DNA of 64,000 nt from Bacillota bacterium (GCA_036677375.1 JAVBWO010000020.1:26960-90959), one strand, 5' to 3'. Positions 5,613-62,388 are shown, counted from the first letter of the stretch. Program-made: numbers and translations. Notes: generated from the sequence alone by a model not told the origin.

Positions 5613-5623
5613 AGGTGATATTT

Positions 5624-10453: not shown

Positions 10454-10485
10454 CCGCCTATGTTTTTACATAGGCGGTTTTTTTA
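10454..10485 (+). terminator. rho-independent terminator of the efflux operon
   Basis: CCGCCTATG-TTTTTA-CATAGGCGG followed by TTTTTTT. Confidence 0.7.
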
Positions 10486-12115: not shown

Positions 12116-12218
12116 TGTGCCCATATAGCGAGGAACGAGTTTTGATATACGGTTTCACTTTACTGTTGTTATACTAAGACTATCCCGTTGAAGAAATAAA
12201 AAGTAAGGAGTGAAACGT

Positions 12219-13175: not shown

Positions 13176-13210
13176 GATCGTTAGGAGATTAAGTCAGGAG
13201 GAAATGATTT

Positions 13211-45000: not shown

Positions 45001-47546
45001 ATGGCGATACCCATAACGTCACCGGTGGCGTAGCAGTTTTTCACTGTACAATTATTGCTGAGATAACCCACGATGCCGCCGGCATCGTCCTGAGTGCAGG
45101 TGACATTGCCGGTTGTGTAGCAGTTTTGTAGGGTTCCGCCTCCGGCCACGTAACCGGCGATGCCTCCGACATCTTCGATGCCGGACACATCCCCCGTGGC
45201 AAAGCAAGTTTGTACGGTTCCTTCATATAAGTAGCCGACGATGCCGCCGAAATTGTAGGTGCTTGATTGTTCGCCGCTCACAGATGCCGATGAGCTGCAT
45301 TTTTCCACCAAGCCGGTAGACCCGATACTCCCTGCAATGCCCCCAAAGCTGTCGCTGCTACTGATTGTGCTCTCGACGCTTCCGGCTGCGTGGCAGTTTC
45401 TTACGGTTCCTTCTACCTTGCCTGCGATACCGCCGACATTTCCGTAGCCGCTGACGCTGCCCGATAAGGTGCATTCTTCAACGTTGGCGCCGCTTTTGAC
45501 ATATCCCGCGATGCCGCCGATGTAATTGCGGGAATGGGTGCAGCTGACACTGGCGTTGGTCAATTCGACGCCTTTCACCAAAGCGCCGCTGCCGAGATAA
45601 CCGAATAAGCCTTGATTGTCATAGTCCAGCCCACTTACCGCCAGATGTTGGATTTCATAACCGCAGCCGTCAAAATTGCCTGTAAAAGGATTGGTGCTTG
45701 TGCCTATGGGCGTCCAGCTTGCATACGGAATCAAATCGATATCGTTCATCAGTTTATAATAAGCGGCTGCGAAGGTTGTGTCGTCATTCTTAATTTTTTC
45801 TGCTACCGCGGCCAGTTGAACCGCATCCGTGATCTGATATTGATCTGTGGATGAACCTGTTCCGGCGCCAGCCGGGAAGGGTTCTATGTAGAGGGGCAAT
45901 GTCGCGTTTTGCGTGCCACCGGTATTGGGCAAGGTCGGCAGACTGCCGGCCGTAAAGATCCAGCCGTTGGCAGAAGTAAAGCCGGCGTCCGTCCAGGGAT
46001 CGGCTGTCTTTAGTTGGGTCGCCGACTTGCCTTCACCGTCATTGCCGGTGGTGTTATCGGTAGGCGTATAGAGTACGCTGTTTAACATGATAGGCATGGC
46101 GCTCCAGGCAAGATTGCTCTCGGCGGTAATAAATCCGGAATAAATTCGGTGCGCCATCGCATCGGTGCCGTCGGAAGAAAGGCTTGCGTTTAAGGCGACG
46201 CAATTCTGTATCTTGCCGCTGCTTGTGCCGTAACCGGCAATGCCGCCGATATCATTGGGGCCGTTTACGGTTCCTGTGGCATAACAATTCGTAATGAGGG
46301 TGTTTGATGTCTGAGAACCGGCGACAACGCCTGCGATTCCGCCGGCCGATTGGAAGCTGGCCTCAATATCGCCTCTGCTATAACAGGCGGATATCGTGCC
46401 GCTGTCTTTTATCTCACCGGCGATACCGCCGATATATTGTATAGCGGTAATATCTCCGGTGGAATAACACTGAGAGATTACCGTGTTGCCTGAAGCACTG
46501 CCTGCGATGCCACCCACCCTGGTGCTGCCGTTTATATCGCCTGTTGTATAACAGTTTTCTATCGTGCAGCCGGCAGAGGAGCCGATCATGCCGCCGGCAT
46601 GATCGTTAACGGTTAACTCTCCCGTTGAATAACAGCCTTGTATGGTAATTGCATCACCTTTTCCCAACACACCGCCGGAATAATATCCGGTTGTGCTCAC
46701 CGTGCCGGTATTGTAGCAACCTGTTATATCGCCGTTTGATGTTCCGGCCACACCGCCGGCAATGCCAAACGCAGCAAATTCATTTCCATTGTAATAGGCC
46801 TCCGATGTGCCCACTGCACCGGTATTGTAGCAGCCGGTTAAGCTGCCGCTGCCGCCAACGGCGCCGGATATGCCGCCAATGGCGCCGAAGCCGATAACGG
46901 AGCCCTCATTGTAGCTGTTGCTGACGGCTCCTGCACTGATTCCTACTAGACCGCCCACACAATTGGTTCCTCTGATGGCGCCGCTATTGCTGCAGTTGTC
47001 CATGGTTCCGGATATAGTTTGGCCGACGATGCCTCCCACTTGATTGCCGCCGAGAATAAAGGATTGGGAGACTATAAGATTTTGGATGACGGCCCCGCTG
47101 CAATACCCGAATAAGCCCTGATAATCATTGTCCGTACTGATATAAATGCCGCTGATGGTATGATTTTGCCCGTTAAATGTGCCGCGGAAGGGTTTATCGT
47201 TTTCGCCGTCCACATAGAGGCCGATGGGCGTCCAGCCATTGGCCGGCGCGGTGTCATCGTCCCAATCCGTCCAATTGCTGGTGCCGTTGAGTTCAATATC
47301 GGCATTTAACTTAATGGTCTTGTTGTAAAAATCGGTACCGCCGTTGACCAGGCCGGACAGGCCAGCCAGGTCGGCCGCGTCGGAAATGGTGAACTCTGAA
47401 GCGGATGTGTCCGCCGTATACCATGTCGTATCAGCTTCTGTTCCGTTCCAGGCAGCAACTGCTGTTAGCTCCATTGCCAGCAGCATGATAATTGCCATAC
47501 TTAAAGTCAAAATAAGAGCGAACCATTTAGCAGAACCTTTTTTCAT
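42093..47546 (-). CDS. giant (1817 aa) cell-surface protein: signal peptide, about 20 GLUG-type Gly-rich beta-helix repeats, Ig-like domains and three C-terminal SLH domains
   Basis: N-terminal signal peptide. Repeats of the ...GG(I/L)(A/V)G...G.I.NCY... type. Thr/Ser-rich Ig-like segments. The C-terminus carries three S-layer-homology motifs (FSDVSGWYQDYVDFLAARGIINGTDGKFDPNDNITRAQLATILANL; FTDVPTAAWYFAAVQWAYEKGVANGMDGKFDPNASITRQDIAVMI; FSDNKAIASYAGNAVTMMQKAGIISGNSNGSFAPMANATRAEAAKMIALLL). Confidence 0.8.
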   Translation of the reverse strand: MKKGSAKWFALILTLSMAIIMLLAMELTAVAAWNGTEADTTWYTADTSASEFTISDAADLAGLSGLVNGGTDFYNKTIKLNADIELNGTSNWTDWDDDTAPANGWTPIGLYVDGENDKPFRGTFNGQNHTISGIYISTDNDYQGLFGYCSGAVIQNLIVSQSFILGGNQVGGIVGQTISGTMDNCSNSGAIRGTNCVGGLVGISAGAVSNSYNEGSVIGFGAIGGISGAVGGSGSLTGCYNTGAVGTSEAYYNGNEFAAFGIAGGVAGTSNGDITGCYNTGTVSTTGYYSGGVLGKGDAITIQGCYSTGELTVNDHAGGMIGSSAGCTIENCYTTGDINGSTRVGGIAGSASGNTVISQCYSTGDITAIQYIGGIAGEIKDSGTISACYSRGDIEASFQSAGGIAGVVAGSQTSNTLITNCYATGTVNGPNDIGGIAGYGTSSGKIQNCVALNASLSSDGTDAMAHRIYSGFITAESNLAWSAMPIMLNSVLYTPTDNTTGNDGEGKSATQLKTADPWTDAGFTSANGWIFTAGSLPTLPNTGGTQNATLPLYIEPFPAGAGTGSSTDQYQITDAVQLAAVAEKIKNDDTTFAAAYYKLMNDIDLIPYASWTPIGTSTNPFTGNFDGCGYEIQHLAVSGLDYDNQGLFGYLGSGALVKGVELTNASVSCTHSRNYIGGIAGYVKSGANVEECTLSGSVSGYGNVGGIAGKVEGTVRNCHAAGSVESTISSSDSFGGIAGSIGSTGLVEKCSSSASVSGEQSSTYNFGGIVGYLYEGTVQTCFATGDVSGIEDVGGIAGYVAGGGTLQNCYTTGNVTCTQDDAGGIVGYLSNNCTVKNCYATGDVMGIAIDGNAGNVAGDIYADETEPSNNATVTNCYYLGSAVPGSSEATAKTGAELATVEMAWIFNTTNGAEPNSGIWAQGTTPVFADSTHFAVYKLTLSGSAAPIVVYSNSDGSVALPETATGTNGKPFLGWFKEVSLSTPINSVPSLTIDDTIYGNFGVRMLSITDEEHTYNGSVINYAGTVTDNAAGIPGVSEVQLIYYIDQQYTKTTPSNSGSVLEGSAPKNAGSYYMEAVAEACELTTSATNRVSFIIKKANPVITVSTDHPSGQMYGQDVKATVTVAPPSGSPADGFPSVGEINLAATGATLKAALSASATPGVYTAIYTMPATYSSGQEATFTANIPTETANYKAYTATDQTAGVSLLDKKATVTTVTANDTSLIYGESAVLTAHVGSDDEAALAGTVQFTLDGVNVGNPATISNHTASITLDKNSLPFKSSAYTVGAQFTADSATETDYSNSSGSVNLTVSKKVLTIKAKDVIITTGAALPVPELAYSGFLSGDTKDLLTVTTPFTMEIRNTDNSVLTGSNTAGTYSIVITTGAATADNYEIVTADGILTIRGKSNGSSLGDGSATPETDDTHTAPNTVTVTIDAVLNQSGTIDFALTEKLITQAIKEAAEKTAAFGVDDIIFEVDIAGADTASGFTLRIPAGALGSLVDSFINQLKLSTPVGILTFDTKTLQQWNSQTTSDIDITVAAVDRLTLSKEAQAQIGNRPVYDFTVTSGNKTLSNLGGGAVTVSLPYTPEDGEDTDQIVIYYITPGGELVMVPNCVYDAKTGMVTFSVTHFSIYAVAYHKVSFSDVSGWYQDYVDFLAARGIINGTDGKFDPNDNITRAQLATILANLSGDDLTGYHTSSFTDVPTAAWYFAAVQWAYEKGVANGMDGKFDPNASITRQDIAVMISRYADKIANATLPETKSAVTFSDNKAIASYAGNAVTMMQKAGIISGNSNGSFAPMANATRAEAAKMIALLLQSMIG

Positions 47547-48066: not shown

Positions 48067-50553
48067 TTATTTTAATTTCTCCGCCAGTTTGGCACGGCGG
48101 TCAATGTCCAGCTTCTGAAATATGGTGCGCAAATGGAATCGAACGGTATTCTCCGTTACCATCAGCCTTTGCGCGATCTCGCTGTTATGCAGGCCATCCG
48201 CCGCAAGGAGCGCCACCTCTCGCTCCCTTGCGGTAAGGTCCCCGGGCAGTTCGTCTGCCATGACTCCGTTATGCAGCGTTGTAAAACCGGTAATAAAACG
48301 CTCCCTGATTTCAAGAAAGCGGGCTAGCTGTTGGGGGTATTGTTGCCGGATCAGTTTCTCCGGTAAACCTTTAAGCATCCAATGATATACCGCAAACAAA
48401 TAGACAAAACCGTCGGGCAGTGCTTTTTGAATGGCGTTTTCCAAAAGCTCCTCGGCGCGGCATGGGTTGTCCAGCCACATATGTCCGATAGCGGCCAAAA
48501 TGGAAAGCATCGTATCGGCCAAAGCGTCAACGGGGCGGAGCGCTTCCCGTCCTGCTTCAGCTACTCCCGCAAGCTGTGAGAATTTCCCTTCGTGCATAAA
48601 ATAAGACAGCCGCACAAACAGGGCGTTAAGCTCCATCTCCGGAAGGAGTTTTCCCGTCGTTTCACCGCTTTTTAACCAATCCGCAATACGGTTCTGGTAC
48701 TGCAATTCATTGAGCAGCAAGCCACGCAGCATATCTACCGCGGCATGCAGTACGAAGTTGTTTTGCCCAGGGTAGGAAGCGGCTTGTTCCATTGAGGCAA
48801 TGGCGCGCTGCCAACCCGCCATGTCGGATTTTTCCACCGCAATTTCCGCCAAATGCAGCGCCGCGCCAAGCCGTACTATGCTTTGCTGTTTGCTTTCGGC
48901 AAGGAAAATTGCTTTATAGGCCAGGATCTCCGCTTCGTTTAAGTTTCCCCGATAATGGGCCAGCTCCGCACGAAACAATGCGTCGGCCCCGCTGCCATGG
49001 CCCGCTGTCAACCTGGAATACATGGATAGGTATTCTGCCAGGGCGGCGGCCTCCCGGTCTGCTTCTCCAGGGCTATTATGAAATACGGCAAGCTGGGAAT
49101 AGTTGCCGAAGCACCACGGCGCGGAGGGCAAAATCACCCGCGAACAGGTTCCTTGAAAAAGCGGGGCGGCCCGCTTCAAAAGGGTAGCCATTTCGTCCAG
49201 ATGGGGTAGGCGCCGCCAAGAGGAAACTAACAGCCATTCCCCACGCAAAAGAGAAGCGTCTTCAGCGCCGCTTTCCTCCAGCATGTCCAGCATAGTATAT
49301 AGCTCTGCCATTAATAAATCAAACTCGGTGTTCTTTCCCACTGTCAGAAGGGCCCAGGCGATCTGAAGCATGGAAAGGATGTTTGCCTTTTTGATTTCAT
49401 ACGGGCAGTTTTGCGCAATGTCCAAAGCCAGATGAGGAAAAAGCACATTTCCAATGGATTCTAATGTTATATGGGAAAGGTCAAGAGAAAGCATCCGTTC
49501 ATAGTCTTTCATTTGCATATAAAAGGCCAGAGCCTTGTCAGTTTCGCCTTCATTCCGGTAATAATCGCCCGCCTTAAGCAGACATTGGCGTTCAAAGGCG
49601 GCTCCGCGCTCTTTTCGCTTCTGAATCAGAAGTTCCGACAGGATGCTGTGCAGTTCATAGCGTTTTTCGGCCGCTTCATAGCGGATGAATGGACTGCCAA
49701 GGGCATCCAACGCGGATGGAAGCAATGTGTCGCAACCCATAAGGGTACAGGCTTGCTGTACCGTAACCATATCAAAAGGCGACAGGCTTAAAAGAAATGT
49801 TTGCTGCTCATTGGATAGCGTATCCCATACCAGGTGCTCCATCAATGACAGGATACCGGATCTGTCTGAAACCGACTTTCTTTCACGGTATGTGCAAAGC
49901 TGTAGATAAACTCCAATGATCCAACCTTCGGTGCAGCGAAATACCGTATGCGCGTCCTCAGGGGTAATATCCACAGCTGCAAGAGCATAATAACGCCGGA
50001 TATCTTCGGCATCCAGCCGAAGGTCGGCAGCGGTAATATGTAAAATGCCGTGGCCGGTTATATAGGCAATCATATCCCGCTTGAACATCTGAGCCGCCAT
50101 GATGATATGTAACCCCCCGCCGCCATGTTCCAGCAACGCGATTAAAAAAGAAGCCGGCAGGTTGGTTTGCAGGAATTGAAAATTATCAATCACAAGATAG
50201 GTTTCATGCTTGCATTCAATGGAACGCAGCGCGTCACAGGCTTCCCCGACGGTAGCGGCGTTGGGCAGCTCGGTCTTGAGAAGACGTTGTCCCGCCCCGC
50301 TGTCGATCTTGTCGATCTCACGGCAAAGCCTCCGAAAGCCTGCGGCGGGTGCTTCATCCGTTGCGGTGAACCAATAGACGGACGTGTTTTGCGGAATTCC
50401 GGTTTCCAAGAAATCGCGTATCGCCGTCGTTTTGCCGTAGCCGGAGGGAGCCTCCACAACGGTTGCGGGCGCATAACAAAGCATATTTAACTTTTGTTTC
50501 AGACGTTCTGAATAATAATGTGGCTCGCTTTTGCCGGTTTTCTGATACGCCAT
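48067..50553 (-). CDS. MalT-like large ATP-binding LuxR-family transcriptional regulator
   Basis: N-terminal P-loop (APSGYGKTT), central TPR-like helical region and C-terminal LuxR HTH (LTAREREVALLAADGLHNSEIAQRLMVTENTVRFHLRTIFQKL). Confidence 0.8.
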   Translation of the reverse strand: MAYQKTGKSEPHYYSERLKQKLNMLCYAPATVVEAPSGYGKTTAIRDFLETGIPQNTSVYWFTATDEAPAAGFRRLCREIDKIDSGAGQRLLKTELPNAATVGEACDALRSIECKHETYLVIDNFQFLQTNLPASFLIALLEHGGGGLHIIMAAQMFKRDMIAYITGHGILHITAADLRLDAEDIRRYYALAAVDITPEDAHTVFRCTEGWIIGVYLQLCTYRERKSVSDRSGILSLMEHLVWDTLSNEQQTFLLSLSPFDMVTVQQACTLMGCDTLLPSALDALGSPFIRYEAAEKRYELHSILSELLIQKRKERGAAFERQCLLKAGDYYRNEGETDKALAFYMQMKDYERMLSLDLSHITLESIGNVLFPHLALDIAQNCPYEIKKANILSMLQIAWALLTVGKNTEFDLLMAELYTMLDMLEESGAEDASLLRGEWLLVSSWRRLPHLDEMATLLKRAAPLFQGTCSRVILPSAPWCFGNYSQLAVFHNSPGEADREAAALAEYLSMYSRLTAGHGSGADALFRAELAHYRGNLNEAEILAYKAIFLAESKQQSIVRLGAALHLAEIAVEKSDMAGWQRAIASMEQAASYPGQNNFVLHAAVDMLRGLLLNELQYQNRIADWLKSGETTGKLLPEMELNALFVRLSYFMHEGKFSQLAGVAEAGREALRPVDALADTMLSILAAIGHMWLDNPCRAEELLENAIQKALPDGFVYLFAVYHWMLKGLPEKLIRQQYPQQLARFLEIRERFITGFTTLHNGVMADELPGDLTAREREVALLAADGLHNSEIAQRLMVTENTVRFHLRTIFQKLDIDRRAKLAEKLK

Positions 50554-52604: not shown

Positions 52605-52643
52605 CTGCCTGTTGAAGAAGCCTTCAGCAGGCAGCTTTTATTT
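52605..52643 (+). terminator. rho-independent terminator
   Basis: CTGCCTGTTGAAG-AAGC-CTTCAGCAGGCAG followed by CTTTTATTT. Confidence 0.7.
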
Positions 52644-52765: not shown

Positions 52766-52793
52766 TTGACATATGCCCAAAATTAGATATAAT
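52766..52793 (+). promoter_or_regulatory. sigma-A-type promoter candidate (TTGACA-16 nt-TATAAT) for the metallocluster gene cluster
   Basis: TTGACA at 52766-52771 and TATAAT at 52788-52793. RBS AAGGAGG at 52823-52829. Confidence 0.5.
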
Positions 52794-52838
52794 GAAAGAG
52801 TAAATGGCATATGACAAAAACTAAAGGAGGTGTGTAAT

Positions 52839-53084
52839 ATGCCGGGAAGAGACAAAACAGGTCCATTAGGAAACGGAGCAATGACAGGTAGAGGTTTTGG
52901 TTTATGCTCGGGTGGCGGCGCGAAAATTGCAGGCTCAGGCATGGGGTTTGGTTTTCGGAGAGGTTGCAGAAGAAACCGGGCTGAGGCTATGTTTGCGGCT
53001 AAGCCGCGAAAAGAGATGTTGGAGGAACAAAAAAAGTTTCTGGAAAGCAGGCTTTCTGTTATCAACAAAGAATTAAAAAATTGA
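52839..53084 (+). CDS. DUF5320-family small protein
   Basis: Starts MPGRDKTGPLGNGAMTGRGFGLC, typical of DUF5320. Coiled-coil C-terminus. Confidence 0.6.
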   Translation: MPGRDKTGPLGNGAMTGRGFGLCSGGGAKIAGSGMGFGFRRGCRRNRAEAMFAAKPRKEMLEEQKKFLESRLSVINKELKN

Positions 53085-53310
53085 TCCCAAAGTTTTCGGA
53101 ACACGGTTTGAGGGGTGCTTATCTGTTAAAAGCAAAAAAAGGACATGCCTGAAATTGGTTTTCGTCATGTCCGCACAAGAGCCCTCAAAGGCTTATACCG
53201 CTTATGACGGCATTGCATCGTCGTATGACAGTCTGAAACCGGAGGATCCACTGAAGCGAAGCGACAAAGGATAGCGTCTGTTGCTTATGCATAAAATGAG
53301 GTGAAAAGAT

Positions 53311-53697
53311 ATGTCGCGACCCAGAAAATGCCGTAAAGTCTGCTGTTTGCCGCAAAGCAATCATTTCGGTCCGTTGAATGGGGGCAATCATCAGATGAAT
53401 GTAGTGATGATGACCGTTGACGAATACGAAACCATACGCCTGATCGACCTGCAGAATTTTACCCAGGAGGAATGCGCCGAGCAAATGCATATCGCACGCA
53501 CCAGCGCCCAGAGAATCTACAACGAGGCCAGAAAAAAACTGGCTGATGTTTTGGTGAATGGGAAAATCCTGCGCATTGAAGGCGGTGATTATCAGCTTTG
53601 CGACGGTTTGGAAAATACCTGCCGGTGCGGCGGCTGCCGCAGACACCGAGCCATGACCGGGCAAAAGAAGGATGAAAACGGCGATAACGATGGATAG
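53311..53697 (+). CDS. DUF134/UPF0251-family protein (putative DNA-binding)
   Basis: Starts [21 protein letters not shown], a DUF134 hallmark. C-terminal CxC/CxxC cluster. Confidence 0.65.
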
Positions 53698-53866
53698 TTT
53701 GTGTACTGTTCGATTTTTCATTTCCTGCCTGCCGTGATTGGGCAGACAGGAAATGAAAAGCTTCTGATAGAAAGAAGGTTCAGTCAAATCCGTAATCTGC
53801 GGATCAAATTGAGCCGCGATGAAGTGCCACCGGTAAAAAAATAAGGTTTAGAAAGGAGCTTTTTCA

Positions 53867-54235
53867 ATGAAAGTAGCAATTCCTGCGGATGAAAAATCCT
53901 TGATGGGGGATGTCTGTCCATCTTTCGGGCGGGCGCCTTATTTTGCAATCTACGATATAGAAACGAAAGAAAATGTGTTTTTTGAAAACGGAGCTGCCGC
54001 AAGCCAGGGCGGCGCGGGAATCAAAGCGGCCCAGTCCATTGTTGATCAGGGTGTGAAAGCTTTGCTAACGCCCCGCTGTGGTGAGAATGCCGCCGAGGTC
54101 TTAAAGGCTGCCGGTATTGCGCTTTATAAAACGGCGCCTGGTTCTGTTCTGCAAAATATTGAAGCTTTTGCTGACGGCAAGCTTCCTTTATTGCAGGATA
54201 TCCATCCGGGATTTCACGGTCATGGCGGGCAATAG
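53867..54235 (+). CDS. NifX/NafY/NifB-C-terminal-like dinitrogenase FeMo-cofactor-biosynthesis family protein (COG1433)
   Basis: MKVAIPADE...CPSFGRAPYFAIYD...ALLTPRCGENA matches the MKIAVAS/HFGH-type fold family. RBS AAAGGAG. Confidence 0.65.
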   Translation: MKVAIPADEKSLMGDVCPSFGRAPYFAIYDIETKENVFFENGAAASQGGAGIKAAQSIVDQGVKALLTPRCGENAAEVLKAAGIALYKTAPGSVLQNIEAFADGKLPLLQDIHPGFHGHGGQ

Positions 54236-54236
54236 C

Positions 54237-55094
54237 ATGAGGATCGCCGTATTAAGCGGCAAGGGCGGCACCGGCAAGACTTTGGTCTCGGTGAACCTGG
54301 CGGCGGTGGCGCAGGATGCCGCTTATATTGATTGTGATGTGGAAGCACCGAACGGTCATCTTTTTTTGAAACCGGAAGGTGTTGTGAGCCAGCCGGTGAC
54401 GGTGAAGATTCCCTATGCGGATCCCGCCCGTTGCAACGGGTGCCGCCAATGCGTGCGCTTCTGTAAATTCAACGCTTTGGCCCATATCGGAAATAAGCTG
54501 CTGGTCTTTGAAGAGGTCTGCCATTCCTGCGGCGGCTGCCTGCTGATATGCCCCCAAAAGGCTTTATCGGAAAAAGAAAAAATCATCGGAGCCGTACAGG
54601 AAGGGATGTCCGGCCATATCACCGTAAAGAGCGGTATTTTAAATACCGGGGAAGCATCCGGCGTTCCCATTATTAAGGCTCTCTTAAATGGTATTGCCGA
54701 TATGACGGGAGATATTTTTATCGACTGTCCTCCCGGCAGCGCCTGTATTGTTATGGAAAGTATCAAAGAGGCGGATTATTGTATTCTGGTGGCGGAGCCG
54801 ACAATTTTTGGGGTGCATAATTTGGCCATGGTCCACCGCTTGGTTCAAATATTTCAAAAGCCCTATGGCGTAGTGTTGAACAAGTGTCTGGAGGCGGAAA
54901 ACCCCGCCGAGGAATTTTGCAAACAGCAGGGCATCAAGGTTTTGGGCGCCATTCCTTTTGATCATGAACTGGGCAGGATGAATTCCGATGCCTTGATCGC
55001 GGCGGCCGAAAGCCGGAAGTATGAAGAATTATTTTCCGGTTTGTTGGGTACCGTACGAAAGGAGGCGCGGGATGCGGCAGCTATTGATTCTTAG
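54237..55094 (+). CDS. MinD/Mrp-superfamily P-loop ATPase with inserted 2x[4Fe-4S] ferredoxin domain (COG1149 type), copy 1
   Basis: Deviant Walker A GKGGTGKT plus CNGCRQCVRFC...CHSCGGCLLICP. Alternative in-frame start at 54222. Confidence 0.75.
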   Translation: MRIAVLSGKGGTGKTLVSVNLAAVAQDAAYIDCDVEAPNGHLFLKPEGVVSQPVTVKIPYADPARCNGCRQCVRFCKFNALAHIGNKLLVFEEVCHSCGGCLLICPQKALSEKEKIIGAVQEGMSGHITVKSGILNTGEASGVPIIKALLNGIADMTGDIFIDCPPGSACIVMESIKEADYCILVAEPTIFGVHNLAMVHRLVQIFQKPYGVVLNKCLEAENPAEEFCKQQGIKVLGAIPFDHELGRMNSDALIAAAESRKYEELFSGLLGTVRKEARDAAAIDS

Positions 55095-55926
55095 CGGCAA
55101 AGGCGGTACGGGCAAGACCACCGTTGCCAGCGCTTTTATCAGGCTTTCTCATGCCAGAGCCTTTGCGGACTGCGATGTGGACGCACCTAACCTGCATTTG
55201 GTCATACAGCAGCAGACGCCGCCCCGGCGCTCGGATTATTATGGTTTGCCGAAAGCGGTGATCAATCCTGATCTTTGCATCCGTTGTGATCTGTGCCGTC
55301 AGAATTGCCGGTTTGAAGCCATCCAGGATCAGGGCAGCTATCAGGTAAACCCCTACGCCTGTGAAGGCTGCGGCGTCTGCGAAGCGTCGTGCCCGGCTGG
55401 CGCCGTATCTTTTCTCCCGGCGGTGGTAGGCGAACTGATGCTTTATGAAGGACAAGAGGTGTTTTCCACAGCGGAGCTGAAAATGGGAAGCGGCACTTCC
55501 GGAAAATTAGTCACGGAAGTAAAAAAACAAATGAAGATCGCCGCCCCTAAGGCCTATCTGGCAATCATCGACGGGTCTCCCGGCATCGGCTGTCCCGTGA
55601 TCGCTTCTTTGAGCGGCGTAGATTTGGTCCTTATCGTGACGGAGCCTTCTCTTTCAGGTATCAGCGATATGGAGCGCATTATTAAGACGGCGAAACAATT
55701 CGGTACTAAGGTTGCCGTATGCATCAATAAATATAATACCAACATTGCCAATACGGCAAAAATCAAAAAATATTGCCAGGAAAATAGTTTGCCCTACGTT
55801 GGCAAGATCCCTTATGACCCATATGCTGTCAAAGCAATCAACTCCGGCTTAAGCATCGTGGACGTGGATTGCGCGGCGGGCAGCGCCGTAAAAGCTGTCT
55901 TTAAAAAGACCGTTGATCTGCTTTAA
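55072..55926 (+). CDS. MinD/Mrp-superfamily P-loop ATPase with inserted 2x[4Fe-4S] ferredoxin domain, copy 2
   Basis: GKGGTGKTT plus CIRCDLCRQNC...CEGCGVCEASCP. RBS AAAGGAGG upstream of the ATG at 55072. It overlaps copy 1 by 23 nt. Confidence 0.75.
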   Translation: MRQLLILSGKGGTGKTTVASAFIRLSHARAFADCDVDAPNLHLVIQQQTPPRRSDYYGLPKAVINPDLCIRCDLCRQNCRFEAIQDQGSYQVNPYACEGCGVCEASCPAGAVSFLPAVVGELMLYEGQEVFSTAELKMGSGTSGKLVTEVKKQMKIAAPKAYLAIIDGSPGIGCPVIASLSGVDLVLIVTEPSLSGISDMERIIKTAKQFGTKVAVCINKYNTNIANTAKIKKYCQENSLPYVGKIPYDPYAVKAINSGLSIVDVDCAAGSAVKAVFKKTVDLL

Positions 55927-55941
55927 GAAGAGGGGAAACGT

Positions 55942-56766
55942 ATGATTATCAAAACCTTGCTGGAGAACACCGCGGTTTCCGCAGAATATCAAAGTGAGCA
56001 CGGGCTCAGCTTATATCTTGAGACCCGGCTACACAAAATTTTATTTGATTTTGGCAAAAGCCGGTTATTTTTGGAAAATGCCGCAAAAATGGGAGTGGAC
56101 ATTTCAAAAGTCGATATGGCGATTTTATCCCATGGACACTCTGATCATGGCGGCGGCTTAAAGGCTTTTTTGCAGGAAAACCAAAAAGCCAAGGTTTATA
56201 TCCATGCCAAAGCTTTTGAAAGACATTATGCAAAGCGGCCCGGCGGGGTGGTGGAAGACATCGGCCTGGACCCGTCCTTAAAGGAAAACGAGCGGATCAT
56301 TCTTACCGGAGATCATTTGGTGATCGATGAAGAGCTGGAGCTTTTTGCCGATGTCCGGGGGCAAGAGCTCTGTTCTTTGTCCAATCAGGCTTTATTGATG
56401 GACGGGGCAGCCGGCTTGGTGCAAGATACCTTTGCCCATGAACAGAACCTGATCGTGACGGAATCCGGTAAAACCGTGCTGCTGGCGGGTTGCGCCCACC
56501 GCGGTATCGTCAATATCGTGAAGTCTTTCATTGCCAGGACCGGCCGGCCTGCCGACTGTGTTATCGGCGGTTTCCATCTTTTTAACCCAGGCACCAAAAA
56601 AAGCGAGGAACCGGCTTTGGTTCATGCCGTTGGGCAATATCTGAAAGAAACGGGCTCTTTCTACGGCACTTGCCATTGTACCGGCCCGGAAGCTTTTGCC
56701 CAATTGCGGGAGGTTTTGGGGAACCAAATTCATTATTGCGCCGCGGGGGATGTATTGGAGATATAA
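55942..56766 (+). CDS. MBL-fold metallo-hydrolase
   Basis: HxHxDH motif (SHGHSDHGGG) plus downstream His/Asp ligands. Confidence 0.75.
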   Translation: MIIKTLLENTAVSAEYQSEHGLSLYLETRLHKILFDFGKSRLFLENAAKMGVDISKVDMAILSHGHSDHGGGLKAFLQENQKAKVYIHAKAFERHYAKRPGGVVEDIGLDPSLKENERIILTGDHLVIDEELELFADVRGQELCSLSNQALLMDGAAGLVQDTFAHEQNLIVTESGKTVLLAGCAHRGIVNIVKSFIARTGRPADCVIGGFHLFNPGTKKSEEPALVHAVGQYLKETGSFYGTCHCTGPEAFAQLREVLGNQIHYCAAGDVLEI

Positions 56767-56816
56767 ATGAAGGAGACAAAACAGGTTGTTCATTAATTAA
56801 AACGGAGGGAAAGTAT

Positions 56817-57173
56817 ATGAAAATTGCAGTTGCAAGCGAAGGGAAAATGGTAACGGAGCATTTCGGTCATTGTGAGAATTTTAATATATTTGAAGCGGAA
56901 GAGGGACAGATCACGAAGAGAACTTCCGTGGCCAATCCTGGGCATAAACCGGGATTTCTGCCTAATTTCCTCAATGATGCGGGGGTTAATGTGATTATTT
57001 CCGGCGGTATGGGTGGCGGCGCCGTCGAGATCTTTAACGAAAAGGGTATTGAGGTGATCACCGGTGCCAGCGGCGATGCCGAAACCGTTGTGCAGAAGTA
57101 TCTGAAAGGCCAATTGCGCTCCACCGGCTCCATTTGCCATCAGCACCAGCATCATGGAGAATGCGGTAATTAA
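56817..57173 (+). CDS. NifX/NafY-like dinitrogenase FeMo-cofactor-biosynthesis family protein, copy 2, with His-rich C-terminus
   Basis: MKIAVASEGKMVTEHFGHCENFNIFE... and C-terminal CHQHQHHGECGN. RBS GGAGGG upstream. Confidence 0.65.
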   Translation: MKIAVASEGKMVTEHFGHCENFNIFEAEEGQITKRTSVANPGHKPGFLPNFLNDAGVNVIISGGMGGGAVEIFNEKGIEVITGASGDAETVVQKYLKGQLRSTGSICHQHQHHGECGN

Positions 57174-57300
57174 ATCAAGAATAAAAGACCTTCCCCCGGG
57201 GCTTCCTGTCTCAAAAGCCGTATGCTATACTTTAAGCAGATAAATTGTCCCGGGCAGATTGAAAAAAGTCTTTTATCATAGAGCAGGAAGGTGTTGTGTG

Positions 57301-57690
57301 ATGTTTTGCGGTTCGTTTAACGATAAAGTAATCGAACATTTTACAAACCCGAGAAATGTCGGCGTCATGGAAGACGCCGACGCCGAAGGAACCTGCGGCG
57401 ATCCTGGATGCGGCGATTATTTGATCGTCTATATCAAAGTGAAAGATCAAATCATCACGGATATCAGTTTCTTAGTATTCGGCTGTGTCGCCGCCATTGC
57501 CACCAGCAGCGTAACGACGGAACTAGCCAAGGGCAAGACCCTGGAGGAAGCTGCCAAAGTGACCGACACCGATATCGTTGCCGCTTTGGGCGGGTTGCCT
57601 GAAAATAAGCTGCATTGTTCTGTTTTGGGGGCAACAGCTTTGCAAAATGCCATTAAAAATTATTGTACCGGTAAAGCCGCTTGTTCTTAA
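57301..57690 (+). CDS. NifU N-terminal/IscU-like Fe-S cluster scaffold protein
   Basis: HFTNPRNVG, the three ligand cysteines (GDPGCGD; FGCVAA; HCSVL) and LPENKLHC. Confidence 0.75.
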   Translation: MFCGSFNDKVIEHFTNPRNVGVMEDADAEGTCGDPGCGDYLIVYIKVKDQIITDISFLVFGCVAAIATSSVTTELAKGKTLEEAAKVTDTDIVAALGGLPENKLHCSVLGATALQNAIKNYCTGKAACS

Positions 57691-57758
57691 AGCGGCTCTG
57701 CCTTTTTCTGAAGTAAAATCTGCTTGATCATAAATTTCATGTAAAAGGAGCTGTTGAA

Positions 57759-58250
57759 ATGGAAAAAAGAGAAGCCAAAATGAAATCTTGTTTGCAACCC
57801 ATGCCTAAAGTACTGGTTTCCTGCAGAGGGTTGGATGGTGAAAACAATGCCCTTGCCGTAGCCTACTGCGGCAATTGCAGCTATGATCCTCCCATGGTCA
57901 TGGTGGGCATTGTACCGACGCGTTATTCTTATAAAATGGTAAAAGAATCCGGTTGCTTTGTGGTGAATCTTGTGGATAAAGCCGGACAGGAGATGTTTGA
58001 TTATTTGGGTAGCCACAGCAAACGCGACGGGGATAAACTGGCGGCGGCCAAGGTTCGTTTGGCGGAAGGCCAAAAAGTGAATGCGCCTGTCTTAGCCGAT
58101 TGCCCCGTGAATATTGAGTGCCGGGTTGTTGACTCCATCGTGACCGGGTCTCATGAAATGTTTATCGGCAAAGTGGAGTATGTGCACGCCGCGGCGGAAC
58201 TGTTGGACGGAGAAGGCAATCTTGATTATTCCCAGATCAGCTTTCTGTAA
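57759..58250 (+). CDS. flavin reductase-like / flavoredoxin (FMN-binding split-barrel)
   Basis: PKVLVSCR...NALAVAYCGN...PPMVMVGI pattern typical of the Flavin_Reduct family. RBS AAGGAG. Confidence 0.65.
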   Translation: MEKREAKMKSCLQPMPKVLVSCRGLDGENNALAVAYCGNCSYDPPMVMVGIVPTRYSYKMVKESGCFVVNLVDKAGQEMFDYLGSHSKRDGDKLAAAKVRLAEGQKVNAPVLADCPVNIECRVVDSIVTGSHEMFIGKVEYVHAAAELLDGEGNLDYSQISFL

Positions 58251-58342
58251 TGACGGCGTCGCTGCTTGGAACGGTTTGAAATCATATTATTTAAAACCAT
58301 ACTAGCGTTTCGGCCATTGAACCGGGCACAAAGGGAGTGTTT

Positions 58343-58792
58343 ATGATCGGTATAATAGGAACGGTATATGCCATTTCTATCAGCTTACAGAGAGGCCAGC
58401 TGAAAAAAGAGGTTCCCGAAGCCAATGTAATCGAGGGCTACGGCATTGAAAATGACGGGCACGGCGGCCCTTGGGGCCGCCAAATCACCTGTCTGAGTTG
58501 GGCAAGTGTGCAAAAAGCCAAAGAGGAGCATCATCTCAATGTCGGCCCAGGCGATTTTGCCGAAAATCTTCTTATTGACGGATTGGACTTAAGAGGTTTA
58601 AAGGTTGGCGACCGGTTAAAATTGGGTGAAACGGTTCTCTTAGAGATCACGCAAATCGGTAAGGAAGATCATCCAAGCGTCGTCAGCAAAACCTTTGGCG
58701 TCAGCCTCTTGCCAGGCGAGGGGTTGTTTTGTAAAGTGATTGCCGGGGGAAGACTCAAAAAAGGCGATCCTGTTGCCTTGATCCGATATTAA
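58343..58792 (+). CDS. MOSC-domain protein (MoCo-sulfurase C-terminal-like beta-barrel)
   Basis: MOSC-like pattern. RBS GGGAG 5 nt upstream of the ATG at 58343 (GTG at 58337 is an alternative). Confidence 0.55.
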   Translation: MIGIIGTVYAISISLQRGQLKKEVPEANVIEGYGIENDGHGGPWGRQITCLSWASVQKAKEEHHLNVGPGDFAENLLIDGLDLRGLKVGDRLKLGETVLLEITQIGKEDHPSVVSKTFGVSLLPGEGLFCKVIAGGRLKKGDPVALIRY

Positions 58793-58832
58793 GCGGCCAT
58801 CGTTATATCATAAACGAAGGTGAGGAACTGAG

Positions 58833-59276
58833 ATGAAAAAAATAGGCATTATTATTTGCGGACGTTATGCCAATTGCGGCGGCGGTAAGTGCTTTAGGGC
58901 ACTACGGGAACGTCTGGGCGGTTTTGCGGTCTACCCTAGGGAAGAGGAAGTTGAGATTGTCGGGTATTCAAATTGCGGCGGCTGTCCGGGCGGCAATATC
59001 GAATATGTTCCGGAAGAAATGATCAAAAATGGCGCGCAGGTGCTTCATCTGGCTACAGGGCTTGTAGTAGGGTATCCGCCATGTCCGAACATACGAAGGT
59101 TTAAAGAATTCTTGGAAACGCATTATCAAGTTCCGGTCATCGTGGGAACACACCCTATTCCTAAGAAATATTTTATGGATCATGAAAAGATGTCTTTTTG
59201 GCAAGAAATGAATATGTCTGAGATTGCCCCGGAATTATTTAAGGAATCGGAAGTAATTATGAAAAATTATGACTGA
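58833..59276 (+). CDS. CGGC-domain protein
   Basis: The eponymous NCGGCPGG motif plus an N-terminal CGRYANCGGGKC. Confidence 0.6.
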   Translation: MKKIGIIICGRYANCGGGKCFRALRERLGGFAVYPREEEVEIVGYSNCGGCPGGNIEYVPEEMIKNGAQVLHLATGLVVGYPPCPNIRRFKEFLETHYQVPVIVGTHPIPKKYFMDHEKMSFWQEMNMSEIAPELFKESEVIMKNYD

Positions 59277-59323
59277 TTTTAAGAATGATGATGGTTACAA
59301 ATCAAAAATCTTGAGGTGAAGCT

Positions 59324-59956
59324 ATGTATACTTGCGCCATGTGCGGCAAGCATTCATGTCAAACGGGGGAAACGGAAAAAATGCCCCGCAACTGCCCCTG
59401 TCATGATAAAGAAATGCAGGAAGAAATAAAAACCAAATATCTTGAGGATGACAATTATCAATTGGCCTATCAAGCGGCAATGGTGGAAGCTTCAGGATAT
59501 TGCAAAGCCACCAGGTTGGAAGAAACGATGGATTTTGCCAGGCGATGCGGCTTTAAAAAGCTTGGTCTGGCATTTTGTGTAGGGCTTTGCAAAGAAGCCA
59601 AGGCCTTATGCACCATTTTACAGAACAATGGCTTTTCTGTGAGTTCAGTGATCTGTAAGAACGGTCATATCCCCAAAGAGTTTTTAAAGATCCAAGGCAA
59701 TGAAAAAGTAAGGCCCGGTACGGATGAGCCGATGTGTAACCCCATCGGGCAGGCCTATTTTTTGAACAGCGAGCAAACGGATCTCAATATTATTCTGGGG
59801 TTATGCGTGGGACACGATTCCCTGTTTATCAAATATTCTGAGGCGCCGGTCACCGTGCTTGCAGTCAAGGACCGGGTGTTGGCCCATAATCCTTTGGGGG
59901 CCTTGTATCTTGCGGAAGGTTACTATAAAGACAAGCTTTCTCTCTCAAGTAAATAA
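59324..59956 (+). CDS. DUF1847-family Cys-rich protein
   Basis: N-terminal MYTCAMCGKHSCQ...CPCH cysteine cluster and overall pattern of DUF1847. Confidence 0.5.
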   Translation: MYTCAMCGKHSCQTGETEKMPRNCPCHDKEMQEEIKTKYLEDDNYQLAYQAAMVEASGYCKATRLEETMDFARRCGFKKLGLAFCVGLCKEAKALCTILQNNGFSVSSVICKNGHIPKEFLKIQGNEKVRPGTDEPMCNPIGQAYFLNSEQTDLNIILGLCVGHDSLFIKYSEAPVTVLAVKDRVLAHNPLGALYLAEGYYKDKLSLSSK

Positions 59957-60074
59957 GACCTAGTGAATCAGAAAAACAGCCGATAGCATTTTGCATAAAA
60001 TTTTACTTAAATTTTGTTGAATTCGTCCAAAGGGAATTTGGTTTACAGGGGGAACAATAACACATTAGAATGGG

Positions 60075-60284
60075 ATGATTCGTTTGATTGAAAAGAATAT
60101 GAAGATTCTTGATATCGTCGCACAATACCCGCCGACCCAGGACGTGTTCCGGAAATATGACCGAATGGCCGGTAGCTGTATCATGTGCAATCATTTATTT
60201 GATTCCCTTGAGATCGTATCCCTGCAATACGGGATTGATCTTGACGGTTTGATTGCCGATTTGGATTTGTCTCTTGACCAGTAA
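60075..60284 (+). CDS. DUF1858-domain small protein (ScdA/RIC N-terminal-like)
   Basis: 69 aa with the IVAQYPPTQDVFRKYD...C..C pattern of DUF1858. Confidence 0.5.
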   Translation: MIRLIEKNMKILDIVAQYPPTQDVFRKYDRMAGSCIMCNHLFDSLEIVSLQYGIDLDGLIADLDLSLDQ

Positions 60285-60336
60285 AAATTGGCACTGACGT
60301 GTTTTGAAATGCGCGGAAGGATAAGGGGGTGCTATT

Positions 60337-61608
60337 TTGCAGGACCGCTTGCATATGGAATGCCTGAAAATACTCAAAGAAGAGCTGGTTCCCGCTTTGG
60401 GGTGTACGGAGCCCATTGCCATTGCTTATGCTGCGGCGAAAGCCGCCGCTGTTTTGGGCCAACGTCCAGACAACCTGGAAGTCTGGTGCAGCGGCAATAT
60501 TATCAAAAATGTCAAGAGCGTGGTGGTTCCCAATACCGGCGGGTTGAAAGGTGTCAAAGCCGCTGCGGTTGCCGGAGCCATCGGCGGTAATGCGGAACTT
60601 GGCCTGGAGGTCTTGTCTGCGCTTACCCCAATCCGGCAGGAGGAGATCAGGCAATTGGCGGAATCTTCTTATTGTGTTTGCCGCCTGCTGGAGAATGCCG
60701 AGAACCTGCATCTCATTGTCAAAGCCAAAAAAGGCTGGGAAACCGCCGAGGTGGAAATCAAGACCCAGCATACCAATATTACCAGAATCAGCAAAAACGG
60801 TAAGCTCCTCATGGAAAAAAATGAGGAAGCCTTTTTGGATCATGCGGCGGCGTCCGATCCCGCTTTGAGCGTACGTTCTATTTTGGAATTTGCCGATACG
60901 GTGCGGATAGCGGATGTCCGGGATCTTTTGGAGCGGCAGATCCAAATGAACTCCGCCATTGCGGCGGAGGGCATGGCACATCCTTATGGTGCGGATGTAG
61001 GCAAAACGCTTTTGAAATTTTACGGCGACAGTGTGCTGGTACGGGCGGCGGCGTCAGCGGCGGCAGGCTCTGATGCCCGTATGAGCGGCTGCAATATGCC
61101 GGTGGTGATCAATTCGGGAAGCGGCAATCAGGGAATGGCCGTCTCCCTGCCGGTGATTCAATTTGCCCAGGAATTGGGTGTCTCCCGGGAAAAACTTTAC
61201 CGGGCCTTATGCGTCAGCAACCTGACGGCGGTTTATCTGAAACGGGATATTGGCAGGCTTTCCGCTTATTGCGGCGCCGTCTGCGCCGCCTGCGGCAGCG
61301 CTGCCGGCATTACTTATCTGCATGGCGGCGGTTATGAGGATGTGGCGTGTACCATTACCAATCACTTGGCCAATATCAGTGGCGTGGTCTGTGACGGCGC
61401 CAAGCCTTCCTGTGCCGCCAAGGTGGCCTCGGCGGTCAGTGCCGGAATCATGGCACACTATCTCAGCGCGGAACATAAACATTTTGCCGCCGGAGAAGGC
61501 CTGGTCAAAGAAAACGTGGAACAGACCATCCAAAGCGTGGGCCGTATGGGCAGAGACGGCATGAAAGAAACCGACGTGGAAATCCTCAGGATCATGCTGG
61601 ACAATTAA
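60337..61608 (+). CDS. UPF0597/YhaM-family protein (L-cysteine desulfidase CdsB-like, serine dehydratase-like fold)
   Basis: About 420 aa. Conserved GCTEPIA(I)AYAAA N-terminal motif and Cys-containing segments (VCDGAKPSCAAK) typical of the CdsB/YhaM family. Confidence 0.65.
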   Translation: MQDRLHMECLKILKEELVPALGCTEPIAIAYAAAKAAAVLGQRPDNLEVWCSGNIIKNVKSVVVPNTGGLKGVKAAAVAGAIGGNAELGLEVLSALTPIRQEEIRQLAESSYCVCRLLENAENLHLIVKAKKGWETAEVEIKTQHTNITRISKNGKLLMEKNEEAFLDHAAASDPALSVRSILEFADTVRIADVRDLLERQIQMNSAIAAEGMAHPYGADVGKTLLKFYGDSVLVRAAASAAAGSDARMSGCNMPVVINSGSGNQGMAVSLPVIQFAQELGVSREKLYRALCVSNLTAVYLKRDIGRLSAYCGAVCAACGSAAGITYLHGGGYEDVACTITNHLANISGVVCDGAKPSCAAKVASAVSAGIMAHYLSAEHKHFAAGEGLVKENVEQTIQSVGRMGRDGMKETDVEILRIMLDN

Positions 61609-62012
61609 AGCTTGCTCGACAAAGTCAAAAGAATTTTTTGGCAGGTGAAAAAAGCTGCCTGAATGGAAGAGCCTTTTGGGAAAGGCGTGCCCTTAAGCTC
61701 TCTTGATGGCTGGCAGATTCAGAACACACAGGCTATGCCAACGGACGTCGATACCCTTGATGTGAAAAACCGTTACCGGTAAAATAAACGGTTCCATATA
61801 AACAGACAAAGCAAAAGACCTTGGGTTGGAAGAGGGTGTTTTTGCTCAATGTCCGTTTTCTGCGGAATCGTTCAAAAATGCGGTAACGGCTTTTTTATTT
61901 ATGACTTCAGTTCATTAGCGCGCAGTGTGTACAAAACAAAAATATACTGCTATGAAGAAAAAACCGGCTCTTGAGACGCTGGCCAGGGGTAAAACCTTAT
62001 AGACTGAGTAAG

Positions 62013-62045
62013 GCCCACCCGTTTGACGGGTGGGCTGATTGCAAT
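62013..62045. terminator. hairpin terminator between convergent cluster (+) and hydrogenase operon (-)
   Basis: GCCCACCCG-TTTGA-CGGGTGGGC followed by TGATTGCAATTTTG on the + side. Confidence 0.5.
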
Positions 62046-62130
62046 TTTGCCGAAAACGGCTCGTCTTTTCATTTGTGGTCTTTGCTACAGCAACGGAATG
62101 AATGCAGATATCGTTTGAGTGATAGAGATT

Positions 62131-62388
62131 TTATTGGGCGGTTTCCCCTCTGATACTTTTGATGACGGCGGTTTGCGCCTCAATATCGCCTCGTTCTACT
62201 TGAAGAAGAAAGCGGTCGGATAATAAGCGTCCGCAATGCAGCCGCAGATGCCGCAATAGGTTTTCTTCATTGATATGGCTCTGATGATGCACAATGACTG
62301 ACAGTTCTTCCACCTTGCCGATGGTTTTGTCTTGGCATATCTCCCATAACGATTTTGCAAGATTGTCCAAGAGAAATGTATCATGCAT
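62131..62388 (-). CDS. HypA/HybF-like N-terminal domain protein lacking the zinc-finger (85 aa)
   Basis: Starts MHD (compare the MHE Ni-binding N-terminus of HypA) and is co-linear with the HypA N-domain. The C-terminal CxxC...CxxC zinc module is absent. Confidence 0.4.
   Translation of the reverse strand: MHDTFLLDNLAKSLWEICQDKTIGKVEELSVIVHHQSHINEENLLRHLRLHCGRLLSDRFLLQVERGDIEAQTAVIKSIRGETAQ

Follow-up and report, generated by a model that had tools for sequence, protein, structure and literature searches.

A probable Bacillota-type 'orange protein' (ORP) operon with a conserved twin-palindrome promoter and a lineage-specific tail of sulfur and redox genes

Fourteen successive open reading frames (ORFs; g1–g14) on the plus strand of a 64,000-nt stretch of Bacillota DNA (GCA_036677375.1 JAVBWO010000020.1:26960-90959; the whole stretch is called the window here, and positions count from its first letter) raise the question of whether an array of metal- and sulfur-related genes constitutes a pathway of its own. 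The array occupies 52.77–61.61 kb, and a [NiFe] hydrogenase large subunit and its maturation protease adjoin it in convergent orientation. An earlier note, made from the sequence without database searches, read the whole as a dedicated, undescribed pathway of metallocofactor assembly or repair. The analysis described here leads to a different partition, which we consider probable though well short of certain: g1–g7, probably together with g8, represent the ORP ('orange protein') operon in a Bacillota-type form, and g9–g14 a lineage-specific accessory tail. No new pathway is revealed, the genes being known in kind; what is added is a twin-operator promoter, the hypothesis that a DUF134 protein regulates it, and the recurrent association of the core with an IscU-type scaffold and a DUF1847 protein. 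The observation behind the note is therefore partly borne out, and its interpretation over-reaches in that the core is known, the tail lineage-specific and the hydrogenase adjacency coincidental.

The gene content and coordinates of the array are real. Fourteen co-directional genes were confirmed, with start codons reset by direct reading for g1 (52839), g4 (54237, MRIAVLSGKGG), g5 (55072) and g7 (56817), and Pfam and NCBIfam profile searches of the window ORFs against curated cut-offs support the placement of each product in a metal- or sulfur-related family. Twelve of the 14 exceed curated Pfam cut-offs in the families named from sequence alone, the DUF1858 assignment of g13 being the part that stayed below threshold. 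The distribution of these genes was followed by scanning one genome per species, which gave 80 loci, mostly from Bacillota but also from metagenome-assembled genomes (MAGs) labelled Anaerolineaceae, Chloroflexota, Synergistaceae and Leptospira, and by counting matches to all window proteins over these loci with tblastn. Homologs of g5 number in the thousands at ~70% identity, and g1–g7 form a colinear module in the 80 species-representative genomes, with g5 in all 80 loci, g4 in 76, g3 in 74, g2 in 68, g7 in 66, g1 in 40 and g6 in 25. The recurrence of a DUF5320/DUF134/NifX-like/ATPase core is thus strongly upheld. The accessory genes score 15 for g8, 3 for g9, 2 each for g10 and g12, 1 each for g11 and g14 (the latter on the opposite strand) and 0 for g13, and three genes of the hydrogenase operon and two upstream genes score 0/80 each. 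Annotation-free clustering of all ORFs between −8 and +9 kb of g5 returned, beyond the core, a metallo-β-lactamase (MBL) protein at 29 loci, IscU at 12 and a FepC-like ATP-binding cassette (ABC) transporter ATPase at 11, and all other clusters at 5 or fewer. This FepC/FecE-like ATPase lies ~4.6 kb upstream of the second ferredoxin-ATPase of the core (ATPase b) in 11/80 genomes (e.g., at 5375–6145 of locus L013), is absent from the window, and may represent a linked metal uptake system.

The core corresponds to an operon described in Desulfovibrio. In D. vulgaris Hildenborough the ORP complex (Orp3, Orp4, Orp5, Orp8 and Orp9/MrpORP) is encoded by two divergent sigma-54 operons under the control of OrpR, which senses redox potential through a [4Fe-4S] cluster (PMC6345978, PMC8359166, PMC3897727; Fievet 2011 cited there). 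Orp3 and Orp4 are 41% similar and carry two ferredoxin motifs each, Orp3/4/8 can be loaded in vitro with Fe-S clusters from MrpORP, Orp8 homologs contain a Mo-Cu sulfide cluster, and the ORP proteins have been purified and partly characterised (PMC6345978, PMC8359166). Since the window core matches this operon, it is neither 'functionally unassigned' nor 'undescribed', as had been proposed. Its first counterpart is g3 (53867–54235, plus strand as for all fourteen genes; Pfam Nitro_FeMo-Co, 84.8 bits), a single-domain ORP/Orp8-like protein of the NifX family that matches D. gigas ORP (2wfb) over residues 2–109 with an E-value of 4e-14 in the Protein Data Bank (PDB), and TM1290 and MTH1175 at ~1e-19. 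A second NifX-family protein, g7 (56817–57173; Pfam Nitro_FeMo-Co, 82 bits), matches the C-terminal Di-Nase part of the NCBIfam MrpORP model (positions 265–365, 119.8 bits, where the full-model cut-off is 450), has a PDB match in TM1816, and carries the HFGHCE motif highlighted in the MrpORP paper (PMC6345978). It is a free-standing Di-Nase domain; its homologs are either free-standing or fused to an Mrp ATPase, and in many homologous loci the full MrpORP fusion fills the g7 position. The two proteins, 24% identical, fall into separate subfamilies, g3 being TM1290/MTH1175/ORP-like and g7 TM1816/MrpORP-C-terminal-like. The intervening genes include a pair of MinD-type ATPase paralogs, both with two [4Fe-4S] ferredoxin motifs, and the likeness extends to a restriction to anaerobes and to a regulation that plausibly responds to redox or Fe-S status. 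The differences are equally clear: a single sigma-70 operon with twin palindromes and a DUF134 helix-turn-helix (HTH) protein takes the place of the divergent pair of sigma-54 operons served by OrpR and IHF, g7 lacks the Mrp/NBP35 P-loop domain to which MrpORP joins its Di-Nase domain, and an MBL protein, an IscU paralog and a six-gene tail are added. Matches to the sigma-54 −24/−12 pattern were at chance level, none of them credible 5' of g1, and a scan of the ORFs between 47.7 kb and the end of the window yielded no Sigma54_activat gene.

The ATPases g4 (54237–55094; CbiA/ParA with two Fer4 matches) and g5 (55072–55926; CbiA/MinD P-loop with two Fer4 motifs), whose reading frames overlap by 23 nt, have an identical architecture of the Orp3/Orp4 type, a MinD/SIMIBI ATPase with an inserted 2x[4Fe-4S] ferredoxin domain, as the note had recognised. 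They are 29% identical and 47% similar, and share a deviant Walker A motif (GKGGTGKT in g4). Thirteen cysteines are invariant in g5, eight of them in two CxxCxxCxxxC motifs and the other five at C34 (DCDVDAPN), C174 (PGIGCPV), C217, C235 and C267; C34 and C174 are also present in g4, within the shared ATPase motifs DCDVDAPN and PG(I/S)xC, and could form an inter-subunit cluster site. The deviant Walker A (GKGGxGK[ST]), the ATP-dependent dimer logic, the association with Fe-S delivery and the conserved cysteines near the switch regions (C34 and C174 in g5) are shared with the SIMIBI metallochaperones Mrp/NBP35/ApbC and CooC, whereas the inserted ferredoxin domain sets g4 and g5 apart from classical Mrp and CooC. 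Both proteins fall far under the NCBIfam cut-offs for MinD and MrpORP, and a PDB search found no solved structure of the subtype.

The P-loop portion gives its best PDB sequence matches with archaeal MinD proteins, and the ORP complex has been reported as 'putatively involved in cell division', with MrpORP localised at the cell poles, so that these ATPases might have a part in cell division or in spatial positioning, with redox sensing as the only task of the Fe-S and NifX portions. However, neither minC/E, ftsZ nor sepF is linked to the core in the window or the 80 loci, the recurring partners are instead IscU, NifX-like, MBL and Cys-rich proteins, and CooC is also among the PDB matches. CooC, Mrp/Nbp35 and NifH are relatives within one ATPase class and serve as metal-cluster chaperones. 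Because an IscU-type scaffold and an MBL protein rank as the commonest accessories, a role in cluster biogenesis is favoured, and one in cell division is judged very improbable.

Which metal the core handles is a related question. Proteins g3 and g7 resemble the NifX, NafY and NifB-C-terminal carriers and the thioferrate storage protein IssA in possessing the small α/β Nitro_FeMo-Co fold that binds complex metal-sulfur clusters and in being paired with P-loop ATPases, but nitrogenase, NifB radical-SAM and NifEN genes are absent here. The Mo-Cu sulfide cluster of Orp8 homologs ([S2MoS2CuS2MoS2]3- in ORP), together with the homology of g3 to D. gigas ORP, could mean that the core is devoted to Mo- or W-sulfide rather than to plain Fe-S, the NifX-like proteins binding thiomolybdate-type heterometal clusters and the ATPases acting with a MOSC protein to store or detoxify Mo/W, or to supply it to molybdopterin enzymes, where conditions are sulfidic and very reducing. 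A small MOSC-domain protein is indeed present in the window tail (g10, 58337–58792; Pfam MOSC 38 bits, C-terminal part of NCBIfam MoaC/MOSC 132 bits) and comes after the core in two other loci, L003 (C. formicaceticum) and L058. With a weak instance in L082 (34% identity, opposite strand), however, the linkage amounts to only 2–3 of the 80 loci, and the commonest recurrent accessory is the IscU scaffold, pointing to Fe-S. A molybdate transporter and moa/moe genes are absent from the window, MrpORP binds and transfers Fe-S in vitro, and sequence cannot reveal metal content. A dedicated Mo/W function is accordingly unlikely, and handling of metal-sulfur clusters, Fe-S and possibly with Mo or W, by an ORP-type core remains the preferred reading.

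A conserved control region precedes the operon. A sigma-70 promoter (TTGACA-16-TATAAT, 52766–52793, plus strand) matches the consensus at 12 of 12 positions and follows the good terminator (52605–52634) in which the upstream DUF5058 operon ends. It contains the palindrome TGACATATGTCA twice, over the −35 box and over the transcription start: site 1, TGACATATGCCC (52767–52778), is a variant that overlaps the −35 box, and site 2, TGGCATATGACA (52805–52816), lies 38 bp from site 1, immediately past the −10 box. Alignment with the nearest relative (locus L001) shows near identity across the promoter region, and of 39 loci compared, 37 have a near-identical promoter 5' of the DUF5320 gene, with the layout (A)GTTATTGACATATG(T/C)CA ... 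GTATAAT ... (T/G)GACATATG(T/C)CA(T)AAC ... AAGGAGGTG, that is, a 12-bp palindrome with half-sites TGACAT and ATGTCA in two copies. Sites with at most one mismatch number 105 in 1.2 Mb of loci, where ~2.6 are expected; 92 of these fall in the operon promoter zone, 1–3 kb upstream of g5, and in most loci they form pairs ~36–40 bp apart. The operator occupies the matching position in L001, L003, L005 and ~50 other loci, and its conservation ahead of the operon spans lineages whose labels cover at least four phyla. Additional pairs are found before IscU(-MBL) in L077 and before IscU-FlavRed in L070, and L059, L060 and L065 have them ahead of NifX or ATPase genes; a search of the window for further copies returned only the g1 promoter pair (52767, 52805), with none before g8–g14 or the hydrogenase genes.

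The likely partner of these sites is encoded by the operon itself. Downstream of g1 (52839–53084; DUF5320, Pfam 66.6 bits), a small Gly-rich protein with two cysteines and a C-terminal helix, g2 (53311–53697; DUF134/UPF0251, Pfam 78 bits) encodes a protein with a sigma-region-4-like HTH between invariant cysteines, whose closest named relatives, at ~70–73% identity, are in Dehalobacter and Desulfosporosinus. Its HTH matches Pfam Sigma70_r4_2 weakly (E 2.6e-4), and a PDB sequence search returned marginal HTH matches only; an AlphaFold2 (AF2) model, confident for residues 31–90 (core pLDDT, the model's per-residue confidence score, 86–93), superposes at 0.5–0.9 Å on HTH–DNA complexes of sigma region 4 and DeoR, with weak E-values, as expected for 45 residues. 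The operator half-site TGACA resembles a −35 element. Residues C11, C97, C104, C106 and H112 are invariant, C12 and C109 are ~90% conserved, and the cysteines flank the HTH; they could ligate an Fe-S cluster or metal, or sense redox state. Both operator and DUF134 occur in 49 of the 61 loci with enough upstream DNA. The twin palindromes are thus probably the operator of the cluster-encoded DUF134 protein, a candidate autoregulator, as judged from sequence conservation and co-occurrence. A literature search on DUF134, UPF0251, DUF5320, DUF1847, CGGC and the operator, with most subscription journals outside its coverage, found nothing relevant and no description of a DUF134-type regulator or of the operator motif.

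Two loci carry variations on this arrangement. In Clostridium carboxidivorans (L094) a related palindrome, TAGCATATGCTA, occurs twice (9862–9873 and 9886–9897, 24 bp apart) 5' of a DUF1847-DUF364-NifX-like operon, with a DUF134 paralog ~6 kb from the pair, and may mark a second DUF134-type regulon. In a Desulfoscipio geothermicus MAG (L062) the whole operon, from operator pair to the second NifX gene, is present twice in tandem, ~7 kb apart (1767–7000 and 8771–13900).

Of the remaining genes of the array, only two recur. The MBL-fold protein g6 (55942–56766; Pfam Lactamase_B, HxHxDH motif), with PDB sequence matches to 2p4z (E 1e-36) and TM1679, is found in 25–29 of the 80 loci, invariably right after ATPase b. 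The scaffold g8 (57259–57690; Pfam NifU_N, 143.8 bits) retains all cluster ligands of the IscU fold by direct reading (Cys-x-Asp, Cys and His-Cys in TCGD, GCVAAIA and LHCS), a likeness to the ISC and NIF systems (IscS/NifS with IscU/NifU). It scores 159 against the NifU_clost cut-off of 188, and since equivalog cut-offs are not reached it is regarded as a paralog rather than the housekeeping scaffold. Unlike those systems, the cluster contains no pyridoxal phosphate (PLP)-dependent cysteine desulfurase (no Aminotran_5 match among the 14 products), chaperones or ferredoxin. In other genomes the usual place of the IscU paralog is inside the operon, after DUF134 and ahead of the first NifX gene; some loci give it a separate copy of the operator. 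Its description as an extension of the core therefore proves apt, in that it is a genuine recurrent add-on.

No such regularity attends g9–g14. The flavin-reductase-like protein g9 (57759–58250; flavoredoxin family, Pfam Flavin_Reduct 108.9 bits) is near the core in L041 (after NifX), L070 (IscU-FlavRed upstream of the core) and L044 (FlavRed-CGGC). The Cys-rich CGGC-domain protein g11 (58833–59276; Pfam CGGC, 89 bits) is followed by the Cys-rich 'metal-binding' DUF1847 protein g12 (59324–59956; Pfam 218 bits, zero matches in a PDB sequence search), a pair also found in Petroclostridium (L095). The 69-aa protein g13 (60075–60284) contains a CxxC motif and resembles DUF1858/ScdA_N below threshold (DUF1858 23.6 vs 32.2, ScdA_N 16.6 vs 32.5, TIGR03980 31.3 vs 44.95). 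The DUF1847 family is the most interesting of these by its company, standing beside an IscU paralog and/or an ORP core in L031 (as NifX-DUF1847), L060, L088, L089, L093 and L098. In Anaerovorax/Anaerovoracaceae (L098 and L060) an adjacent IscU-DUF1847 pair is divergent to the ORP operon; in the former (Anaerovorax odorimutans, 5042–7376) it follows a DtxR-type iron-dependent repressor, in an operon made up of that repressor, NifU_N, DUF1847 and DUF169, and in the latter the region is 6942–8100. A metagenome scan with DUF1847 gave only 8 distant loci, two of them informative: L088 has ATPase-DUF1847 and was not matched by the IscU query, and L089, a distant metagenomic lineage (ATPase 45% identical), has a colinear ATPase-IscU-DUF1847 order. 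The order in C. carboxidivorans is DUF1847-DUF364-NifX, and an Mrp-like ATPase and a DUF134 paralog lie in the vicinity. Such sporadic combinations of tail genes near ORP cores, with five negative-control genes at 0/80, are suggestive but fall short of a statistical demonstration of enrichment. As a group, g9–g14 make up a lineage-specific tail whose members belong to a loose 'cloud' of genes for Cys-rich, sulfur-related and redox proteins, and they are no fixed part of the system.

The closest relative is instructive in this respect. In JGI sample 3300031485, one contig (L001) carries g1–g7 followed by unrelated genes, with 79–83% identity for DUF134, MBL and both ATPases and 56%–91% for the other core proteins. 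Another contig of the same sample (L093) carries an IscU-MOSC-DUF1847 block (85%, 78% and 80% identity, respectively) with a g13 homolog (66%) after DUF1847, beside riboflavin genes. The sample and the identity level suggest that the two are probably one genome, that of the nearest relative. As they hold the halves on different contigs, the window appears to juxtapose two modules, with FlavRed, CGGC and CyuA added.

Three hairpins are notable within and after the array. A terminator-like hairpin with a U-tract (57670–57702, plus strand; −19.4 kcal/mol, z −4.0) overlaps the g8 stop codon. Nothing terminator-like is found at 61608, where the cluster had been taken to end, and the first strong hairpin past g14 is at 62008–62038. 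Of the supposed promoter-to-terminator stretch, then, the promoter is perfect and conserved, and a single unit would require the g8 hairpin to be leaky. A further hairpin, with a 19-bp stem (53715–53759, plus strand; −27.7 kcal/mol, z −5.6), lies between g2 and g3 and may be an attenuator, a processing site, an RNA-stability element or a protein-binding site; its sequence is not kept in L001. Conserved RNA elements in the g1/g2 and g2/g3 intergenic regions were considered and rejected, as the alignment to the nearest relative is only patchily conserved, and scanning 50.5–64 kb against Rfam gave no match to any RNA family, riboswitches (the Moco riboswitch among them) included.

The final gene of the tail, g14 (60337–61608; Pfam SDH_alpha, 209 bits), is a CyuA/CdsB-type [4Fe-4S] L-cysteine desulfidase homolog. 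Its alignment with CyuA of Methanococcus maripaludis (9he0; phmmer E 2e-27) covers the full length, and it keeps all five catalytic and cluster residues, the CyuA-specific Cys23/Glu25 dyad (GCTEP) and the three [4Fe-4S]-ligating cysteines (LSAYCGAV, VCDGAKPSC), as defined for this enzyme (PDB 9FYI/9HE0; PMC12647591). The suggestion of a 'CdsB-like' sulfide donor is therefore sound at the family level. It is nonetheless a distant relative of the archaeal enzyme, and the bacterial CyuA-type enzyme is known mostly from cysteine catabolism (E. coli, C. difficile) rather than cofactor assembly. Its family is beside an ORP core in only one of the 80 other loci (L068).

The hydrogenase operon is separated from g14 by ~520 bp and a strong hairpin (62008–62038; −23.8 kcal/mol, z −5.2) that is likely a terminator common to the two convergent units. 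The gap itself (61609–62130, 520 bp) contains, besides this hairpin, one mechanical 60-aa ORF (61971–62153, overlapping the end of the next ORF) and no Rfam family. The large subunit and the maturation protease are thus physically next door, as the note had it, but the linkage is not conserved and the orientation is convergent; the operon is an unrelated neighbour whose adjacency is coincidental. The 85-aa ORF that ends it (62131–62388, minus strand; beginning MHD...) had been called 'HypA-like', a label that finds no support: it has no Pfam or NCBIfam match even at E<=10 and no CxxC pairs in its translation, and may be a truncated or novel maturation factor.

These results bear on whether all fourteen genes could nevertheless form one undescribed assembly or repair pathway tied to the [NiFe] hydrogenase, for example one maturing Fe-S or Ni-Fe centres. 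The genes are co-directional with short gaps behind a single strong promoter, every family is metal- or sulfur-related, and a scaffold (g8), a sulfide source (g14) and a reductase (g9) make chemical sense together. Against this stand the linkage of g9–g14 to the core in 0–3 of 80 loci each and of the hydrogenase genes in none, the separation of the halves in the probable nearest relative, the hairpin after g8, the convergent hydrogenase operon past a strong hairpin, the lack of operator copies near the hydrogenase or before g9–g14, and the prior description of the core as the ORP operon. We consider such a pathway decidedly improbable, and the proposal that the 14 genes are one unit is not upheld.

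The preferred partition into an ORP-type core and an accessory tail has its own difficulties. The Mrp P-loop domain is not among the cluster products, and the AF2 model of g5 (16-sequence alignment) has a pLDDT of 47 and is unusable. The equivalence of g4/g5 with Orp3/Orp4 would follow from architecture, synteny with ORP and MrpORP homologs and the literature description, not from direct alignment with DVU2103/2104. What the ORP complex does is itself unsettled, and cell division and Mo-Cu cluster binding are among the ideas published. Operator and DUF134 are linked by correlation, the operator occurring without DUF134 in 4 of the 61 loci and DUF134 without the operator in 6, and another regulator could bind the sites. 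The tail genes lie on the same strand as the core, with gaps of 40–118 nt and no strong promoter of their own, so that they may be co-expressed and act with it in the window organism; every tail family but that of g13 is, moreover, found near some ORP core, weak evidence for functional links.

With moderate confidence the core can be described as an ATP-dependent system for handling metal-sulfur clusters at very low potential. In the mechanism we propose, DUF134, as a presumed operator-binding repressor and functional analogue of OrpR, would auto-repress the sigma-70 promoter via the twin operators until a cluster, metal or redox signal changes. Proteins g3 and g7 would bind metal-sulfur clusters either without covalent bonds or by a few His/Cys residues, and g4/g5, by analogy with Orp3/Orp4/Orp8/MrpORP, CooC and Nbp35-Cfd1, would most likely form an ATP-gated SIMIBI-class heterodimer with four [4Fe-4S] clusters that uses ATP binding and hydrolysis, together with these low-potential clusters, to build, reduce or transfer a cluster to or from g3 and g7, the direction of this flow being inferred. 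The handled cluster may be Fe-S, possibly with Mo or W, and the IscU paralog g8 may supply Fe-S building blocks. Putative read-through from the g1 promoter would co-transcribe the tail and add electrons (g9) and cysteine-derived sulfide (g14). A broader generalisation is more tentative, and we regard it as possible but doubtful: that DUF134 is a Cys-ligated Fe-S, metal or redox sensor that represses the conserved sigma-70 promoter via twin TGACATATGTCA sites in anaerobes of at least four labelled phyla, thereby controlling an ISC/SUF-independent, ATP-driven, low-potential line of metal-sulfur assembly or storage (ORP-type NifX carriers, heterodimeric ferredoxin-ATPases, the IscU paralog and, in some lineages, DUF1847), to which CyuA and the reductase have been recruited here.

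The remaining genes of the window are unrelated to the cluster. Among them, a 1817-aa repeat-rich protein with an N-terminal hydrophobic segment (42093–47546, minus strand) and an 828-aa LuxR-type regulator (48067–50553, minus strand; GerE C-terminal domain, N-terminal AAA_22 match exactly at cut-off) likewise appear to have no connection with it.

The ORP complex is among the most widespread anaerobe-specific gene modules, and what it does has been an open question ever since the isolation of the orange protein. The present locus offers several handles on it: a Bacillota-type operon under a very conserved promoter and operator, probably that of its own DUF134 protein; an IscU-type scaffold and an MBL protein as the most frequent accessories; and a DUF1847 protein that repeatedly accompanies the IscU paralog. 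With a CyuA-type desulfidase and a flavin reductase encoded downstream, the window organism constitutes a natural system for reconstitution.

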